64,000 nucleotides of DNA. Source: Planctomycetota bacterium. Its GTDB lineage: Bacteria > Planctomycetota > JAJSAM01 > JAJVHW01. Under the pieces are notes generated by a model, which was not told the origin of the DNA, searched no databases, and saw only the letters and a program-made list of their open reading frames with translations. The first letter of the stretch is position 1; each line of letters opens with the position of its first letter. The DNA lies in NCBI GenBank assembly GCA_024280885.1, contig JAJRPF010000070.1:107861-171860 (forward strand), given 5' to 3'. Positions 1,929 through 48,674 of the stretch are shown here, piece after piece. The position numbers and the translations under genes are program-made.

Positions 1929-2441
1929 ATGAAAATCCTCCATGCGAAGAACGGCCCGCTCGCGGGCAACTCGTACAAGCTCGGCGCGAGCACCGTGATC
2001 GGTCGCGACGGCGAGTCGGATATCCAGCTCATCGACGACGGCGTCTCGCGGCGACACGCCTGCGTTGTCGAGAACGAGAACGGCAGCTTCTCCATCATCG
2101 ATCTCGGCAGCCGTAACGGTACGCAGGTGTGCGGAGAAGCCGTCCGCACGCGAAGCCTCGCGCAGCGCGACGAGATCACGATCGGCGGTACGACGTTTCT
2201 CTTCGGCGAGGTCGACGACGCGCAGGTGGATACGGACCATCCCGACATGCGCCTGACCAGCGGCCCCGCACTCGAGAGCACCGTCATGCACGAGGTCAGT
2301 GACGTCGTCGCGGATCTCCGCGCCAGAGCCGCCGCCGGCGAGGCCGCGTCGCCCTCGCCGTGCTGCGACAGCCCACTGGCGAGCCGCGCACAGACCGAGG
2401 GCTGGGCGCATTGTCCCTCGTGTGGCTCTCCCGTCGAGTAG
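1929..2441 (+). CDS. FHA-domain protein with Cys-rich C-terminal tail
   Basis: GRDGESDIQLIDDGVSRRHACVV...NGSFSIIDLGSRNGTQV is a canonical FHA core. The C-terminus CCDSP...HCPSCGSP is zinc-ribbon-like. Confidence 0.8.
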   Translation: MKILHAKNGPLAGNSYKLGASTVIGRDGESDIQLIDDGVSRRHACVVENENGSFSIIDLGSRNGTQVCGEAVRTRSLAQRDEITIGGTTFLFGEVDDAQVDTDHPDMRLTSGPALESTVMHEVSDVVADLRARAAAGEAASPSPCCDSPLASRAQTEGWAHCPSCGSPVE

Positions 2442-2494
2442 CCGTCGCCGGTTCCGCCCGGGTTTGCGGCTGGGCCCCTACACTGCGCGGTTCC

Positions 2495-4111
2495 ATGCCG
2501 AACACGCGCTTCTACGTCACGACCCCGATCTATTACGTCAACGATCGGCCGCATACCGGACACGCCTACACCTCCGTGTTGGCGGACGTCATGGCGGGCT
2601 ACCACCGCCTGCTCGGGATCGACACGTGGTTCCTGACCGGCACCGACGAGCACGGGCAGAAGGTGCAGGACTCTGCCGCCGAACGTGACGTGGCGCCGCA
2701 GGCTCTGTGCGATGAGATGGCTGCGCACTTTGGCGACTTGCTGGAGCGTCTGCGCGTCCGGAACGACGATTTCGTGCGCACGACCGAGCCGCGTCACACC
2801 GCCGTCGTGACGCAGGTACTCGCGGAATTGCATGCCCGCGGCGACGTGTATCTCGATCACTACGAGGGCTGGTATTGCGCGCGCTGTGAGCGCTATTGGA
2901 CCGACCGTGACGTCGAGGAGCAGGGCGGCGGTCGCTGCCCGGACCAGCCCGAGTTGCACGGCGTCGAGCGACTTGCGGAGGAGAACTACTACTTCCGCAT
3001 GTCGAAGTACGCCGATCGGTTGCGCGAGGCGATCGAGACCGACGTGTTCCGCGTTCATCCCGAGAAGCGCAAGAACGAGGTGCTTGGTTTCCTGAAAAAG
3101 GGCCTCACCGATCTTTGCATCAGCCGCAATCGAGAGCGGCTGTCGTGGGGAGTGCCGCTCCCTTTCGATGACAAATACGTCTGCTACGTCTGGGTCGATG
3201 CGCTCTTCAACTACAAGAGCGCGATCGGGTATCTCGCCGCCGATGACGCAGAGCACGAGCGCCATGCGCGGTGGTGGCCCGCGGACGTCCACGTGATCGG
3301 CAAGGACATCCTCACGACGCACGCGGTCTACTGGCCGACGCTTCTGATGGCGATGGGGGAGGCACTCCCGCGCATGGTGCTCGCGCACGGCTGGTTGCTG
3401 GACTCCAGGGGCGGCAAGCTCAGCAAGACCAAACGCGAGGGCGACGACGCGGAGGGCGTGTTGCCGGTGCCGACCATCGACGGTCTGCTCGACGTATTCG
3501 GCGCCGACGGCACGCGCTGGTTCCTCGCTACGGCGATGAAGCCAGGCGACGACACAGCGTTCGATTGGACGATCGTGCGCGAGCGCGTGAATACCGATCT
3601 GGCGAACGGTCTTGGCAACACGGCGAACCGGCTACTGAAGATGGCGGCCGGCGCGTGCGACGGTGTCTTCCCCGGACTGGGCGAAGACGACGATGTGGGG
3701 GAGACGCAAGAGCGCGTTCGTGCAGCAGCCGTTGCGGCGGTCGACGCGGTGCGCGCCTTCCCGGAGACGCTTGACGTGACGGCGGTCGTGGCCGCTGTCC
3801 GGAGTGGCGTGGCTGCGATCTCGCTCTTCCTGCAAGACGAGAAGCCGTGGAAACTCGTGAAGACCGACGACGGGCTGCCGCGCGCGCGCATCGTGATCGC
3901 TTGGTCGCTCGAGTCGCTGCGGTTGCTCGCTCTCGCCGTCCATCCCATACTGCCTGAGTCATTCGCCACACTCCGTACGGCACTCGGGATGACCGGCGAT
4001 CTCGATTTCGCGCGCGAGTCGCAATTCGGTGCGCTGCCCGAGGGGGCTCGTCTGGGCGCACCGCCGAATCTCTTCCCCCGTATCGGAGCTGACGCCATTC
4101 CCTCCGCGTAG
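2495..4111 (+). CDS. metG: Methionyl-tRNA synthetase (short form without C-terminal tRNA-binding domain)
   Basis: MPNTRFYVTTPIYYVNDRPHTGHAYTSVLADV (HIGH-type motif) and KLSKTKREG (KMSKS-type). The ORF begins at the ATG at 2495; the track ORF from 2360 carries an N-terminal shadow extension. Confidence 0.9.
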   Translation: MPNTRFYVTTPIYYVNDRPHTGHAYTSVLADVMAGYHRLLGIDTWFLTGTDEHGQKVQDSAAERDVAPQALCDEMAAHFGDLLERLRVRNDDFVRTTEPRHTAVVTQVLAELHARGDVYLDHYEGWYCARCERYWTDRDVEEQGGGRCPDQPELHGVERLAEENYYFRMSKYADRLREAIETDVFRVHPEKRKNEVLGFLKKGLTDLCISRNRERLSWGVPLPFDDKYVCYVWVDALFNYKSAIGYLAADDAEHERHARWWPADVHVIGKDILTTHAVYWPTLLMAMGEALPRMVLAHGWLLDSRGGKLSKTKREGDDAEGVLPVPTIDGLLDVFGADGTRWFLATAMKPGDDTAFDWTIVRERVNTDLANGLGNTANRLLKMAAGACDGVFPGLGEDDDVGETQERVRAAAVAAVDAVRAFPETLDVTAVVAAVRSGVAAISLFLQDEKPWKLVKTDDGLPRARIVIAWSLESLRLLALAVHPILPESFATLRTALGMTGDLDFARESQFGALPEGARLGAPPNLFPRIGADAIPSA

Positions 4112-7431: not shown

Positions 7432-7704
7432 ATGGCGTCTCGCACGACCCTGAACGTCTCGCTCACTCCGGAACTTGGTCGCTTCATCGAGAGCCGACTG
7501 CGGTCCGGGAAGTACCAGACCGCGAGCGAGGTGGTGCGCGAGGCGCTGCGCCTGCTCGAGTCCCGGGGCCGCGAGCCGGTCGCGGGCGTCGAGGAGTTGC
7601 GAACCGAGATCGAATTGGGTCTCGATCAATTGCGTCGAGGCGAGGCCGTCGATGGAGACGAGTTCTTCGATGCCTTGCAGGCCCGTCGCAACGGCACGGG
7701 CTGA
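7432..7704 (+). CDS. parD: ParD-family ribbon-helix-helix antitoxin
   Basis: MASRTTLNVSLTPELGRFIESRLRSGKYQTASEVVREALRLLE matches the ParD/CopG antitoxin signature. A ParE gene follows 6 bp downstream. Confidence 0.8.
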   Translation: MASRTTLNVSLTPELGRFIESRLRSGKYQTASEVVREALRLLESRGREPVAGVEELRTEIELGLDQLRRGEAVDGDEFFDALQARRNGTG

Positions 7705-7710
7705 CCGCCG

Positions 7711-8010
7711 ATGAGCGGATTCGTCCTCTCGCCCGCGGCCGCGGCCGATATCGAGGACATCGCGTCGTTCCTGGACGATCACGCATCGCACGCAACGGAT
7801 TCAGTGCTCACCGCTCTGCGCGGATCGATGACGCGCCTCGCCGAACGACCTGGCCTCGGACATCTTCGCGAGGACCTCGCGGACGAACCGCTGCGCTTCT
7901 ACGCCGTCTGGAGCTACCTGGTCATCTACCGCGTCGCTGCGCGCGTCGAGATAGTGCGCGTGATTCACGCTGCGCGCGACGTGGCCGACGAGCTCAGCGA
8001 CTCCTCGTAG
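7711..8010 (+). CDS. parE: ParE/RelE-family toxin
   Basis: 99 aa with ...PGLGHLREDLADEPLRFYAVWSYLVIYRV..., a ParE-like fold signature. Paired with parD. Confidence 0.8.
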   Translation: MSGFVLSPAAAADIEDIASFLDDHASHATDSVLTALRGSMTRLAERPGLGHLREDLADEPLRFYAVWSYLVIYRVAARVEIVRVIHAARDVADELSDSS

Positions 8011-8106: not shown

Positions 8107-8757
8107 ATGCCCCAGCCCATCGAACTCGTGATTTTCGACTGCGATGGTGTCCTCGTGGACAGCGAGCGCCTCGCGGTGCGCATCGATGCACTCGTTCTCG
8201 CGCGCATGGGATGGCCGCTGTCGGAGTCGGAGATCATCGAGCGCTTCGTGGGCCGCTCCGATGCCTACATGCGCGAGGAGGTTGGGAAACACATCGGTCG
8301 CGAACTGGCCGAGGATTGGGACGCGGAGTTTTCGGGCCTCTACCGCGAGACGTTCGAGAACGAGCTCCGCCCGGTGGACGGCATCGTCGATGCGCTCGAC
8401 GAGCTGTCACTTCCCACGTGCGTGGCATCGAGCGGCAGCCATCGGAAGATGCGCTTCACACTTGGGCTGACGGGTCTTTGGGATCGCTTCGACGGGCTGA
8501 TCTTCAGCGGAGATGAAGTCGAGAATGGGAAGCCCGCTCCCGACCTCTTCCTCCACGCCGCCGATCGCATGGGAGTTGCGCTGGCGGCGTGCGCCGTCAT
8601 CGAGGACAGCAGATTTGGGGTCGCAGCCGCGCGCGCCGCGGGAATGCGTGCCTTCGGATTTGCGGGCGGATTGACGAGCGCGGAGCGACTCGCCGGACCC
8701 GGTACGAGAGTCTTCGACAAGATGCGGGAGCTTCCCCGCCTGCTCGCCGCGTCGTAA
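8107..8757 (+). CDS. HAD-IA family hydrolase (beta-phosphoglucomutase-like)
   Basis: ELVIFDCDGVLVDSE (motif I DxDGV), SSGS, ENGKPAPD and EDS motifs. Confidence 0.85.
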   Translation: MPQPIELVIFDCDGVLVDSERLAVRIDALVLARMGWPLSESEIIERFVGRSDAYMREEVGKHIGRELAEDWDAEFSGLYRETFENELRPVDGIVDALDELSLPTCVASSGSHRKMRFTLGLTGLWDRFDGLIFSGDEVENGKPAPDLFLHAADRMGVALAACAVIEDSRFGVAAARAAGMRAFGFAGGLTSAERLAGPGTRVFDKMRELPRLLAAS

Positions 8758-8993
8758 GTCTCTGGCATGTTGTCGGCGTGCCGAGACGTGCGCGGGCCGG
8801 CCCGTCGCGAGCGGACGTGGACCGGGTCCGCGCGGTCGGCGAGAAGTATCTTCCACACAGGACATCTCGGCGCGTCGCTGTAGTTGTCGCTGCGAAGTAC
8901 AGAACCCGGATGAACTCTTCGGCCCACCGACGCGTCCGAAGAATCCACCCGGGTTCAGCACTTCAGGGATAGGTCGAGTCGGAGGCACGCCCT

Positions 8994-10118
8994 TCACGTG
9001 CCCTTGAAACTCAGCACGGGGCGCAGCCGGCGATCGATGCGCGTGAGCTCGCGCTGCGCGCGCATGACGGCGGCGATGTCGCGGTATGCTCCTGGCGCCT
9101 CGTCGAGCAGATGTCGCTCGCGGCGATGGTCGTACCACACGCCCTGCATCTGACGCCGAAACGTGCGCATCGGGATGCGTCGGCGCGCCTCGGTGCGGCT
9201 CATTGCACGACCTGCGCCGTGGGACGACGAGTTCAGGGCTGCGGCACATCCGCGTCCGGACGTGTGGTAGCTGGCGACGCCCATGGAGCCGGGGATGATC
9301 CCGGCCTCGTCCTGGCGCGCGGAGATCGCGCCCTTGCGATGGACAAGGAGTGGTTCCCCGGCGTGCGTCTCACGCCGAACGTGATTGTGATGGCAGGCGA
9401 AGAACGTCTCCGCATCGGCGGATGCGTCGAGCACATCTGCAATGACCGTCACCGCGCGACGCACGAGCTCCGCTCGATTGGCCTGCGCATACGCGAGAGC
9501 CCACTCGTGATCGCAGATATAGGCCCGTCCTTCGTCGCTGTCGACATCGAGGAAGAGCAGTCCGGATGCCCTGTCGGTCGTTGCCGCGTGCAGATGATGA
9601 TCGCGGATCGCGACGCCCATGCTGCGCGAACCGGAATGGACCATTAGCCACAGCCGCTCCTCGTCGTCCCTCTGGAACTCGAGGAAGTGATTCCCGCGAC
9701 CGAGAGTGCCGAGCTGAAACCGGCCCTCGCGCGCCCGTCGGCGTTCGAGCGTCGGAGCGCTGAGCTGCGCATCTGCGAGCGCGGCAGCGAGCGGTCTTGC
9801 AGCACGGTGCTTGAGGCATGGGATGGTCGAGTAGAGTGCAGATAGGACGCGCGCCGCAGCGATCTCACCGTCGAGGATCGAGGCGTCGGCATTGAATGCG
9901 ATCGCTGCCATGCCGCAGCCGATGTCCCCGCCGACGGCGGCGGGGTAGATCCGATCGCGCGTGGCCAGAACCGTTCCCACGCACACGTCGTGGGCGAGGT
10001 GGGCGTCGGGCATGACGGCGATGTGTGCGGCGCCGCCGGCCGATGCGAGCCGTTGGAGTGACGCATCGACATCGACACCGAGCGGTGTCGACGTCCATCT
10101 GTGGAGTGTCGCCGTCAT
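8994..10118 (-). CDS. rtcB: RtcB-family RNA ligase, short (~374 aa) variant
   Basis: Metal-site and catalytic motifs HIAVMPDAHLA, GGDIGCGM, GRGNHF, ACHHNH, SSSHGAGR. Its length matches the short PrfH-coupled RtcB subgroup. Confidence 0.85.
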   Translation of the reverse strand: MTATLHRWTSTPLGVDVDASLQRLASAGGAAHIAVMPDAHLAHDVCVGTVLATRDRIYPAAVGGDIGCGMAAIAFNADASILDGEIAAARVLSALYSTIPCLKHRAARPLAAALADAQLSAPTLERRRAREGRFQLGTLGRGNHFLEFQRDDEERLWLMVHSGSRSMGVAIRDHHLHAATTDRASGLLFLDVDSDEGRAYICDHEWALAYAQANRAELVRRAVTVIADVLDASADAETFFACHHNHVRRETHAGEPLLVHRKGAISARQDEAGIIPGSMGVASYHTSGRGCAAALNSSSHGAGRAMSRTEARRRIPMRTFRRQMQGVWYDHRRERHLLDEAPGAYRDIAAVMRAQRELTRIDRRLRPVLSFKGT

Positions 10119-10552
10119 GACGACGGCTCCGCGCGCGGAAGGACATCGAAGATGAGTTCCGGCGCCTTGCGGCGACGGATGGCCTGCGCGACGGCGGAAC
10201 GCAACACTCCGTGCGCCCGTTCGAGGCGCGCGCGCACGTCGTCGATCGAGTCGGCGTCAGATGGTGCGTGCACGATCACGCGTAGTCGTCGCGCGTCGGG
10301 AGCGGGCTCCACGGACACGACGTCGAGTTGTTGAAGCAGGGGATCACGGCACACACCGCCGAGAGCGAATTGGAGTGCCCGAGCGGCCTGTGCGGCGAGT
10401 TGGTGGTTCTTGCGGTCGTTGCGAGACCGCGGTTGTTCGTTGCGGAAGAGAATGCGTGGATCGATTCCGTCGTCGGGACCGAGTTCGTCACAGGGCGGCT
10501 GGTTGTTTCGGCACCGCCGATTCCAATCGAAAGACATGGAGACTCCCACCAT
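10115..10552 (-). CDS. rbfA: RbfA-like (ribosome-binding factor A family) protein, overlapping rtcB start by 4 nt
   Basis: C-terminal ~105 aa align to RbfA: ...RDPLLQQLDVVSVEPAPDARRLRVIV...RARLERAHGVLRSAVAQAIRRRKAPELIFDVLP versus E. coli ...[27 protein letters not shown]...[30 protein letters not shown]. There is no GGQ motif, so it is not PrfH. Start codon uncertain: the nearest in-frame ATGs are at 10552 and 10537, giving an N-terminal extension. Confidence 0.55.
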   Translation of the reverse strand: MVGVSMSFDWNRRCRNNQPPCDELGPDDGIDPRILFRNEQPRSRNDRKNHQLAAQAARALQFALGGVCRDPLLQQLDVVSVEPAPDARRLRVIVHAPSDADSIDDVRARLERAHGVLRSAVAQAIRRRKAPELIFDVLPRAEPSS

Positions 10553-10934
10553 CGGGGCCCCGCGTGCGAATCCGCGGACAGACCCCGGGTCTGAAGAAGA
10601 GGGGGAGAGCCGCAGCGGTGCGGTCGAGTGCCCGTGAACTTTTGCCCCGTGAACTTGCACGGGACGCCTGTCAGCGATCGAAGCGCTGAACTAGGGGCCC
10701 GGCCAGAAACCCCCGCGGCGCCGGTGAAGGCGTGATTGCTGGCCGACGTGCGGAGCATCCACCGCGCCCGGGCGGGCCGTCTGCCGCGGCTGCCAGGCTC
10801 GGAGACTCTCCGGAGTCGAGTCGCCTGGCACCCACGACAGCCGTCCCACCCGGACACGTCCGGCTATCCACGGGGGTTTCTAGCCGCACCCCTAGCGGTG
10901 GTTCGGGCCGCGGCTCGAGATCAGACGGTGGGTG

Positions 10935-11300
10935 TCAGAGAGTTGCACGACTGATCTCCTTCTCCGCCATGTGGCGGGCTCGCGGGATGTGGAACGGCAG
11001 TAGCGTAGTCGCGGCCCCGCGCGCGTCAACCCCCGACCGGAGAATCTTCTCGGCCGCACGTGATCGCTCGGGGTCGAGCTCATGGTGTGGCGAGCGCGGC
11101 GCTTCGATCTCCACGCGGACGTTCTCGTGCACGCATGCAGGATGGACGGGCGTGTGGCACGCGATCGTGTACTCGCCCGCCCCGGAGTCGCGATCCGCAG
11201 CTGGCTGTTCTGACCGCCCGGCAGCTCCAACGAGAACTCCCCCTCGGGACCGGTCGTGGCGGAGACCGTGAGTCTGTGTGGCGGTGCTCGTCGCGGACTG
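10935..11300 (-). pseudogene. Carboxypeptidase-regulatory-like domain fragment, apparently frameshifted
   Basis: Two adjacent minus-strand frames each hold half of the domain pattern: ...VSATTGPEGEFSLELPGGQ... then ...SGAGEYTIACHTPVHPACVHENVRVEIEAP.... No usable start codon after the FAD-oxidase stop. Confidence 0.25.
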
Positions 11301-11304
11301 ACCG

Positions 11305-12819
11305 CTACCGGATCTCCGGACCGTAGGTCTCGTAGAAGCGGTTGCGGAAGATGCCGTTGGGGTCGTACTTGCGCTTGAGTTCGAAGAACCGCGTCGACAT
11401 GGGATAGGCGCGCTCGAACTGCTCCCGCGAGGCGTGCAGACGGTACGGGAGGTAGTACCGACCGCCGTGCGCAAGGGACGCGTCGATGAGTTCGCGGGTC
11501 ATGGCGGACATGGCGGTGTCTGCCGCCGCCGACCTCGCCTGGTTGAAGAGCATCACGAACGCGAACATGGGCCCGTCCGCGTAGCGCAGGACGGTGTCCG
11601 TGTCCTCCGTCACGTAGCGAACCGTCACGTTCAGGAGATCGGCGCCGTGGGCCGGGACGATCCGCTGAACCGCCTTCACGAATGCCGCGGTGCCCGCGCG
11701 CGGCACGAAGTACTCGTGGAGGATGTCCGTGGAGTCGGCGCTGCGGTTTTCGAAGACCTCGACGCTTTCGTTGAGCAGTTGGTTGCGCGTGAAGTGCGAG
11801 TCCTTGAGGTGCGGCTGAAGTTGCGCCTCCGCCATCCAGCGCAATTCCTTGCCGTAGTCGCTGCCCACGGAGCCGCGAAAGACAGTGCGGCGCAGCGCGA
11901 TCATCTCCGGTTCCAACAGGGCGGCGAGCGAGCCGTCGGGGGCGGGGTCCGGAGTGAACACGGTCAGGATGACCTCGTTCAGGAAGTCGTCGGGCACGAT
12001 GCCGAGACGCGCGTAGACCATGGCGACGCCGTCGTGCGAGGCCACTTCCCGCTCGTACGTCTCGAAGCCCTGCGTTGCGGGGACGACGAACTGTTCGAGC
12101 CGGTAGCGCTCGTTCGGCACGACGCGGAGTTCGACGTCGAGGATGATCCCGAAGAGCCCGTAGCCGCCCAGGACGACGGAGAAGAGCTCCGCGTTCTCCG
12201 TGCGGCTGCAACGCTTGATGGAGCCGTCAGCCAACATCAGTCGCAGACTCTCGACGGTGGACGCGATGGGCGGGGCCCCGTACTGCCACCCATGGCAGTT
12301 CACGCTCACGGAGCCACCCACGGAGAACGAGTTGTTGGATTGCATCACCCCGACGGAGCGGCCGCTGGCGTCGAGGTACGCGATCACGTCCTTCCAGACG
12401 GCGCCAGCGCCGACGGTGAGGAACTCGCGTTCCTCGTCGAGCCCCATCGTCCGAAACGGCAGCATGTCCACGGCGATGCCGCCGGGATAGAGCGTGTGAC
12501 CGCCCATGGAGTGGCGGGTGCCGGCTACCGATACCTTGAGCCCCTCGCGCGTGGCGCGGCCGAGCAGATCTGCGAGCAGGCGTTCGGCCTCCTCCGCATC
12601 TGCGGGGACGGCGAAGACCTCGTTCATCGGGGTCGCGTTCATGCGACTCGCGTCGTCGAGATAGCCCGCGGGCAGCGGGGCCCGCGTGTCGTCGTCCCTG
12701 TAGACGGTGGTTCCGAGATGCAGGAGGGGGCGAGCGATGACCGCAACGACGGTGAGAACTCCCGCCAGGACCAGACAGAGTCTCCACTTGCGCCTGAGGA
12801 ATCCGGGAGAGCGTGTCAT
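11305..12819 (-). CDS. FAD-binding oxidoreductase (PCMH/vanillyl-alcohol-oxidase type), N-terminal membrane anchor
   Basis: N-terminal TM helix (LCLVLAGVLTVVAVIA), FAD motif VAGTRHSMGGH and ...GGYGLFGIILDVELRVVP.... Confidence 0.8.
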   Translation of the reverse strand: MTRSPGFLRRKWRLCLVLAGVLTVVAVIARPLLHLGTTVYRDDDTRAPLPAGYLDDASRMNATPMNEVFAVPADAEEAERLLADLLGRATREGLKVSVAGTRHSMGGHTLYPGGIAVDMLPFRTMGLDEEREFLTVGAGAVWKDVIAYLDASGRSVGVMQSNNSFSVGGSVSVNCHGWQYGAPPIASTVESLRLMLADGSIKRCSRTENAELFSVVLGGYGLFGIILDVELRVVPNERYRLEQFVVPATQGFETYEREVASHDGVAMVYARLGIVPDDFLNEVILTVFTPDPAPDGSLAALLEPEMIALRRTVFRGSVGSDYGKELRWMAEAQLQPHLKDSHFTRNQLLNESVEVFENRSADSTDILHEYFVPRAGTAAFVKAVQRIVPAHGADLLNVTVRYVTEDTDTVLRYADGPMFAFVMLFNQARSAAADTAMSAMTRELIDASLAHGGRYYLPYRLHASREQFERAYPMSTRFFELKRKYDPNGIFRNRFYETYGPEIR

Positions 12820-48597: not shown

Positions 48598-48674
48598 TGG
48601 TGGGCGATACTGGACTTGAACCAGTGACCCCCTGCGTGTCGAGCAGGTGCTCTAGCCAACTGAGCTAATCGCCC
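48598..48674 (-). tRNA. tRNA-Val (anticodon GAC)
   Basis: Manual cloverleaf: GGGCGAT/ATCGCCC acceptor, GCTC-AGTTGGCTA-GAGC D arm, CCTGC-TCGACAC-GCAGG anticodon arm, ACTGG-TTCAAGT-CCAGT T arm, CCA encoded. Confidence 0.85.

Follow-up and report, generated by a model that had tools for sequence, protein, structure and literature searches.

An RbfA-like protein and an RtcB RNA ligase encoded as a conserved, overlapping gene pair: a candidate module for 16S rRNA repair

A stretch of 64,000 nucleotides (nt) from a Planctomycetota bacterium (assembly GCA_024280885.1, contig JAJRPF010000070.1, positions 107,861 to 171,860), hereafter referred to in its full length as the window, carries a gene for a protein related to ribosome-binding factor A (RbfA) whose end overlaps the start of rtcB, the gene for an RNA ligase. 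This pair of genes is conserved, coupled and co-inherited in bacteria of different phyla. It could constitute a self-contained two-gene module, composed of an RbfA paralogue and a dedicated RtcB, that repairs 16S rRNA on the 30S subunit, a proposal whose chances we regard as evenly balanced. The elements of the pair in the window, together with the parts of the RbfA-like protein, are the following:

8994..10118, minus strand: rtcB, encoding an RNA 3'-phosphate/5'-OH ligase of 374 amino acids (aa), assigned by PF01139
10115..10118, minus strand: ATGA overlap, formed by TGA 10115-10117 of the RbfA-like gene and ATG 10116-10118 of rtcB
10115..10537, minus strand: RbfA-like gene, 140 aa, assigned by PF02033, by a family profile against the PDB, by an AlphaFold (AF2) model and by Foldseek, with its start fixed by homologues
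10543..10547, minus strand: Shine-Dalgarno sequence GGGAG, 5 nt ahead of ATG 10537, read from the sequence
Residues 1-37 of the RbfA-like protein: N-terminal tail of ~40 residues, with C16 and D22-D23-G24-x-D26-P27, then (F)F, giving the hallmark C-x5-DDG-x-DP
Residues 38-133 of the RbfA-like protein: KH core (RbfA-type, type-II KH-like), with the helix-kink-helix A108-x-G110 and the strand motif R122-K/R-R-x-P126-x-L-x-F130

The ATGA overlap with the start of rtcB was already part of a preliminary description of this DNA and is confirmed on reading the sequence; such an arrangement is consistent with translational coupling. Among 16 loci whose junctions were compared, the two genes overlap in 14, by 4 nt in 10 of them and by 8-11 nt in the other 4. 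A word-limited search starting from the RbfA-like protein produced 25 clusters, and three of the four distinct metagenome contigs that reach the downstream gene encode RtcB directly downstream, within neighbourhoods otherwise unrelated. A scan of the GTDB with one genome per species, seeded with a 10-sequence subset of RbfA-like proteins, provided 36 loci. These belong to Planctomycetota (Singulisphaera acidiphila DSM 18658, Paludisphaera soli, and metagenome-assembled genomes (MAGs) labelled Gemmataceae and Pirellulaceae), to Myxococcota (Sorangium cellulosum So0157-2, Sorangium sp. So ce1014 and a Polyangiaceae MAG) and, in a few cases, to MAGs labelled Acidobacteriota or Pseudomonadota. When loci are centred in this way on the RbfA-like gene, RtcB is encoded immediately downstream and on the same strand in 13 of the 36.

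The association was also explored from the side of the ligase, by scanning metagenome contigs with an alignment of RbfA-linked RtcBs. More than 527 stretches matched, and the best 80 of these loci, with identities of 49-61%, were used. Enough upstream sequence was available in 75 of them, and 73 show the RbfA-like gene directly upstream of rtcB and on the same strand. In the remaining two (L103 and L104) only the last ~25 codons of the RbfA-like gene are left, behind an inserted repeat, and rtcB is intact. The repetitive insert that replaces the gene there (~2100-3000 in both loci) translates in several frames to repeats of the GGWPRSS or VAPVI type. Since 73 of the 75 informative RtcB-centred loci carry the pair, a chance adjacency of the two genes is excluded. 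The preliminary description had considered that its proposal would fall if the genome contained no other rbfA and the adjacency were, in addition, unconserved in relatives; both circumstances had to concur, and the second does not occur, the pairing being found in Planctomycetota, Myxococcota and other taxa.

Apart from the two genes, none is found repeatedly around the pair, the clusters of opposite-strand open reading frames (ORFs) detected there being shadows of rtcB, and no RbfA-RtcB fusion appears among the top 120 RtcB matches. The distance matrices of the RbfA-like proteins and of their RtcBs, compared over 85 pairs, are correlated (Mantel r = 0.77, a value reached in none of 2000 permutations), and evolution is faster in the RbfA-like partner than in the ligase. 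A profile search for the RbfA-like family covering 1.84 billion cluster representatives returned 216 clusters at E <= 1e-30 and 1,661 at E <= 1e-10, clusters being defined at 50% identity. Neither Pfam nor NCBIfam holds a model specific to the family, and its members are labelled in public records (NCBI/UniProt) as 'ribosome-binding factor A' or as 'hypothetical protein'. It is thus, apparently, a large protein family that curators have not recognised.

That the upstream partner is an RbfA homologue and not a release factor, as first described, is borne out by several lines of evidence. The product of its ORF scores 38.6 bits with PF02033 (RBFA), above the cutoff of 34.7, this being its sole Pfam match; the GGQ motif is absent, and the fold is that of RbfA. 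With TIGR00082, the RbfA equivalog model, it reaches a score of 36.0, under the cutoff of 51.15. Many members of the family give PF02033 scores of 20.8-37.6, a range that lies for the most part under the cutoff, and the copy of S. acidiphila, with 28.7, falls below it and shows no TIGR00082 match at E < 0.001. The gene had been taken to start at 10552, five codons too far upstream. Every homologue starts at the position of ATG 10537 (MSFDW...), and homologues and the Shine-Dalgarno sequence together place the start there, so that the protein has 140 aa. A gtGGGAGt or gtGAGAGa sequence precedes the start in many homologous loci, closest relatives included.

Between residues 40 and 131 the profile of the RbfA-like family aligns with RbfA proteins of known structure, with a best E value of 5.5e-6. 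The AF2 model, built with 23 family sequences, has a mean predicted local distance difference test (pLDDT) score of 78.6, with values of 84-95 over residues 41-130 and of 44-58 in the N-terminal tail, which is probably disordered when alone, given the low confidence of the model in that region. The modelled topology is the alpha-beta-beta-alpha-alpha-beta one of RbfA (helices at residues 38-62, 98-107 and 109-120; strands at 72-78, 84-90 and 127-133), and the best 18 matches of the model in a Foldseek search of the PDB are all RbfA, among them 2dyj with a TM score of 0.81 and a root-mean-square deviation of 2.2 A.

Residues 1-37 are an extension that belongs to the RbfA-like family, canonical RbfA having no such tail. 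In most subgroups its Asp, Gly and Pro positions reach a conservation of 81-100%, D26 being more variable in the group linked to RtcA that is considered below. Further signatures of the family are R42-K43, Q46-L47-C48-x-Q50-V51, V76-E-P78-A-P80-D and A108-x-G110-x-L-R113. The preliminary description had drawn attention to an N-terminal extension with two cysteines; the extension stands, and the two cysteines do not as a feature of the family, a homologue of 99% identity having Arg in place of Cys9. Cys16 is kept in 63-100% of each subgroup, and at position 48, where Cys is 96% conserved in the family, the window protein has Ala. Longer representatives of the family contain no additional Pfam domain, and their starts are probably mis-called. 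In three Sorangium/Polyangiaceae loci (L036, L037 and L040) the DDGxDP motif is degenerate (for example, ...VVDAGSLFGG...) and the coupling to RtcB is retained; start variants of 127 aa and 107 aa are annotated by NCBI in this subclade.

The downstream partner is the 374-aa RtcB that had been described at 8994-10118, and matches PF01139 over its full length with 276.3 bits against a cutoff of 27. Residues D65, C68, N143, H144, H161, R165, H244, H300, R304 and R308 show no variation among 15 RbfA-linked RtcBs, and each is matched in alignment by its counterpart in E. coli RtcB. We take D75, C78, N167, H168, H185, H281, H337, R341 and R345 of the E. coli enzyme to comprise the residues that bind metal, the His that is guanylylated and two Arg, and H300 of the window RtcB occupies the position of the nucleophile, the guanylylated His. 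As judged from this alignment, the set of catalytic residues is complete. The window RtcB had also been compared with the RtcB subgroup coupled to PrfH, and here the likeness holds for length and not for kinship. Scores with TIGR03073 (cutoff 271.8) are 147.6 for the window RtcB, 143.9 for RtcB of E. coli K-12 (EcRtcB1) and 617.6 for RtcB2 of E. coli ATCC 25922 (EcRtcB2), and those with NF007153 (cutoff 407) are 180.8, 173.2 and 641.1, respectively. In pairwise comparison the window RtcB is nearer to EcRtcB1 (36% identity and 209 bits over the full length) than to EcRtcB2 (31% identity and 110 bits, with many gaps). By sequence criteria, therefore, it is placed outside the PrfH-coupled RtcB2 subgroup.

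The RbfA-like family also occurs in the vicinity of a second RNA-end enzyme. RtcA is encoded in convergent orientation and immediately downstream in 13 of the 36 GTDB loci, all of them Isosphaeraceae-like, with gaps between both genes of 40 to ~95 nt at the four loci measured (L014, L030, L033 and L034). This neighbour is a bona fide RNA 3'-phosphate cyclase, scoring 240 bits with PF01137 and 342 with TIGR03399, whose cutoff is 250. Because the region is syntenic across the clade, the adjacency counts as about one evolutionary event; a chance placement beside RtcA is nevertheless unlikely, by our estimate of ~2 neighbours among ~7,000 genes, and the adjacency also favours a link to RNA-end chemistry over a misplaced housekeeping gene. 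The neighbours at 10 further GTDB loci and at one metagenome locus (L001) are unrelated, including HEAT, FG-GAP, QueF, GH6, DUF6279, Ysc84, FHA and Uma2 proteins. In a crude neighbour-joining tree these orphan members and the RtcA-linked ones nest among the RtcB-linked members, which suggests that linkage to RtcB is the ancestral state. From the existence of members without RtcB and of an RtcA-linked clade it follows that the protein is not merely a cofactor of RtcB, and that it is tied twice to enzymes of RNA 3'-phosphates.

In S. acidiphila (L014; NC_019892.1, 9959-14962), rtcA lies downstream of, and on the same strand as, the gene for a 288-aa protein without Pfam match, which recurs in all 13 RtcA-linked loci, and rpoA is located ~2 kb further upstream of the 288-aa gene, also on the same strand. 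RtcA of this species displays an apparent N-terminal extension of ~75 residues, or else a mis-called start.

What such a protein might do beside an RNA ligase is suggested by its parent factor. On the neck of the 30S subunit RbfA sequesters U1531-C1535 of 16S rRNA, forces h28 away from the 3' end as a wedge and prevents folding of the h44/h45 linker (PMC8177701), and E. coli RtcB2, which requires access to the 30S subunit, rejoins 16S rRNA severed between A1493 and G1494 (PMC9304027, PMC13166195). In the mechanism that we propose, the KH core would dock at the RbfA site on the neck of a free 30S subunit and the paralogue would hold open the 16S 3' or decoding region of the broken subunit. The conserved DDGxDP tail would then recruit or position RtcB, or RtcA instead in Isosphaeraceae, and a 2',3'-cyclic-phosphate/5'-OH break in the 16S 3' minor domain or decoding region, of the type made by the ribotoxins colicin E3, CdiA-CT or MazF, would be resealed. 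This mechanism would parallel that of PrfH-RtcB2, the difference being that a paralogue of an assembly factor would act on the free subunit, where PrfH, a release-factor paralogue, acts on a stalled 70S ribosome. Binding at the 30S neck and the 16S 3' end is suggested by the modelled fold, by the conservation of motifs and by the position reported for RbfA (PMC8177701). A broader formulation, that the family would represent a second widespread bacterial ribosome-repair system, its RbfA-like member keeping the broken ends in an open conformation like that of assembly and its tail delivering RtcB (RtcA in Isosphaeraceae) to 30S subunits with cleaved 16S rRNA, so that a late assembly step is re-run as repair, appears to us possible, somewhat short of an even chance.

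Several considerations weigh against a repair function on the ribosome: (i) we infer all three of its components, namely 30S binding, a complex of the RbfA-like protein with RtcB and the rRNA substrate; (ii) no ribotoxin or immunity gene was found conserved near the pair in the recurring-neighbour analysis of the loci, and PADLOC returned no match; (iii) a KH fold can bind other single-stranded RNAs; (iv) in its closeness to RtcB2, the enzyme that repairs rRNA, the window RtcB does not exceed E. coli RtcB1; (v) the adjacency to RtcA is convergent, not co-transcribed, and confined to one syntenic clade; and (vi) the family profile found no second RbfA in the window or in ~120 loci.

In a first alternative explanation, the RbfA-like protein would serve RtcB as a subunit that binds RNA or activates the ligase, with an archease-like role or as a substrate adaptor, the substrate would be non-ribosomal (tRNA halves, mRNA) and the RbfA fold would simply be a reused KH module for single-stranded RNA. 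The tight, near 1:1 coupling and the co-inheritance of the two genes would be expected from it, as would an RtcB whose nearer relative is the generalist EcRtcB1 and not RtcB2, specialised on rRNA, and the N-terminal tail does resemble a partner-binding peptide. On the contrary, RtcB is missing next to the gene in roughly two thirds of the GTDB members, and in one clade the neighbour is RtcA, which argues for a role beyond RtcB, and the features kept are those specific to RbfA rather than the generic GxxG loop of KH domains. On balance, we find this explanation unlikely.

Point (vi) above bears on whether the gene could be the lineage's own or only RbfA, with RtcB (or RtcA) acting in normal 16S maturation or quality control and the pair forming a ribosome-biogenesis operon. 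The name 'ribosome-binding factor A' given to members by NCBI and UniProt, the occurrence of the family across many Sorangium strains and several Isosphaeraceae genomes, and the location of the gene a few kb from rpoA in S. acidiphila would agree with such a role, as would the failure of the family profile, which does detect the RbfAs of the PDB, to reveal another RbfA. Canonical rbfA (TIGR00082) is, however, a near-universal single-copy marker, and the members of the family fall below the TIGR00082 cutoff, that of Singulisphaera lying under the Pfam cutoff too (28.7 versus 34.7). The RbfA-like gene never adjoins nusA, infB or truB in the loci examined. Recurring neighbours across 117 loci comprise only RtcB, RtcA and Isosphaeraceae-specific genes, a Pfam check of neighbours at the examined loci found none related to nusA, infB or truB, and the location outside the usual nusA-infB-rbfA-truB operon noticed in the preliminary description is thereby extended to the family.

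The genes of the pair, moreover, behave as accessory ones. In S. cellulosum So0157-2 (L037, 10336-11043) rtcB is truncated, its homology to the So ce1014 gene ending after ~683 nt, with the RbfA-like gene intact upstream, and in L103 and L104 it is the RbfA-like gene that has been destroyed; decay in these genomes is a sign of dispensable, accessory-type genes. A further argument for accessory status, patchiness within Sorangium, was dropped, the family being found in dozens of Sorangium strains. The distribution of the family also cuts across phyla and tracks that of RtcB. Considering that TIGR00082 scores are sub-threshold, the context is non-canonical, co-inheritance with RtcB extends across phyla and decay events occur, indirect evidence favours an accessory RbfA paralogue, and we consider a housekeeping RbfA markedly unlikely. 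A planctomycete rbfA, RB5503, is mentioned in PMC2754498.

The least probable of the alternatives, and one to which we give little credit, is that the RbfA-like protein acts as a gatekeeper keeping damaged or immature 30S subunits from translation and RtcB carries out repair separately, both cooperating at the level of the pathway without forming a complex. RbfA occupies the immature 30S subunit until IF3 releases it. That RbfA blocks translation by immature 30S subunits, as reported in PMC7145577, and that family members exist without RtcB would suit a gatekeeper, whereas translational coupling and the presence of the pair in 73 of 75 loci of the RtcB clade argue for a stoichiometric partnership. 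An origin in mobile elements or defence systems can be dismissed, no match having been found in plasmids, phages or IMG/VR, nor in PADLOC.

The surroundings of the pair in the window, whose G+C content is ~67%, contain the following additional elements:

10899..11000, minus strand: upstream element of ~100 nt, ~360-460 nt 5' of the RbfA-like start, detected by blastn, alignment and nhmmer
Within 10899..11000, minus strand: strong Shine-Dalgarno sequence GGAGAAGGAG in the upstream element
10892-10948, minus strand: upstream ORF of 18 codons, MQLSDTHRLISSRGPNHR, a candidate leader peptide
10691..10895, minus strand: nested inverted repeat of 205 nt in the 5' leader (I1, I3), predicted to form a stable RNA hairpin
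8894..8964, minus strand: hairpin 30 nt past the rtcB stop (I2), with 29-nt arms that are 83% complementary, -57 kcal/mol, z = -4.7

The upstream element is 75-80% identical only in the two closest relatives (L008:1220-1322 and L009:9737-9838) and is absent from other subclades; its membership in the module is tentative. Codons 2-4 of the upstream ORF, three in a row, are all changed between L008 and L009 without effect on the encoded residues, and translation of the ORF as a leader peptide is suggested on this basis. Its stop codon falls in the outer stem of the nested repeat. The inner hairpin of this repeat (10763-10858) has a folding energy of -78 kcal/mol with z = -7.3, and the whole leader shows z = -6.9. 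No other copy of the nested repeat was found in the window or in the loci, and the repeat is probably an insertion specific to the window genome, since its length equals the extra spacing of the window relative to L008 and L009. The hairpin at 8894-8964 is a probable transcript end, though it has no U tract. A scan of 8700-11400 for sigma-70 promoters gave nothing, plus-strand terminator-like matches in the same interval were rejected as lying inside coding sequence, and Rfam at gathering thresholds revealed no known RNA family in the long leader. Elsewhere in the window, the sole Rfam/ARAGORN match is a tRNA-Val (GAC) at 48598-48674 on the minus strand. A ParD antitoxin (7432-7704) and a ParE toxin (7711-8010), both on the plus strand, are followed by a gene for a HAD hydrolase (8107-8757), which faces rtcB in convergent orientation; there is no indication that the ParD/ParE genes or the HAD gene are linked to the module.

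When compared with systems already described, the pair shares several features with RtcB2-PrfH of E. coli ATCC 25922, in which a short RtcB (~375-380 aa) likewise overlaps by 4 nt with a paralogue of a translation factor (PMC9304027, PMC9223846, PMC13166195). The parent factors of both partners recognise the decoding or 3' region of the small subunit, and the two systems would share their target, 16S rRNA in the 30S subunit. On the contrary, the partner in RtcB2-PrfH is an RF2-like GGQ protein and that in the window an RbfA paralogue of KH fold; the gene order is reversed, with rtcB2 first in E. coli and the RbfA-like partner first in the window; the window RtcB lies outside the TIGR03073/NF007153 clade to which RtcB2 belongs, at 31% identity to EcRtcB2; and the predicted site of action would be the free 30S subunit for the RbfA-type partner and the stalled 70S ribosome for PrfH. 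No prfH is present by the window rtcB, and the RbfA-like gene is the only recurring neighbour in 91 RtcB-bearing loci.

With canonical RbfA (PF02033/TIGR00082) the family has in common the fold, the AxG helix-kink-helix, an Asp in the alpha1/beta1 loop and a C-terminal R-x-P-E-L-x-F strand, and it differs by the DDGxDP tail, the QLCxQV and VEPAPD motifs, the linkage to RtcB or RtcA and the sub-equivalog score. The RtcR-regulated rtcBA operon of E. coli K-12 includes the same type of ligase, EcRtcB being the closer characterised relative, from which the window RtcB differs in being ~34 residues shorter. RtcA adjoins the RbfA-like gene in Isosphaeraceae, but it does not stand beside RtcB as in rtcBA, no RtcA being present in the window or in RtcB-bearing loci. 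RtcR was not among the recurring neighbour families at RbfA-linked loci, though no search with an RtcR-specific model was made. Unlike rtcBA, the subclade of the window also has an upstream leader of another kind, in which an upstream ORF may be present. Pairs of archease and RtcB resemble the pair here described in that a small protein, presumed to act with RtcB, is also encoded beside it; the window partner is, however, not an archease, its only Pfam match being RBFA and its fold that of RbfA, and it occurs without RtcB as well.

The RbfA-like/RtcB system is apparently undescribed so far. No discussion of RtcB and RbfA as functional partners was found in the literature searched, and an earlier mention could be contained in the survey published in 2016 by Burroughs and Aravind, reportedly the main comparative one on RNA-repair systems. 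To our knowledge, only one ribosome-repair system has been characterised, PrfH-RtcB2, and the natural substrates of most bacterial RtcBs are not known. With this pair, a large clade of RtcBs is provided with a constant partner, all of whose known relatives attach to the 30S subunit where the 3' end of 16S rRNA lies, and the pairing yields a concrete and testable hypothesis on what these ligases repair. The finding suggests, in addition, that factors of ribosome assembly can undergo duplication and be put to new use in repair.

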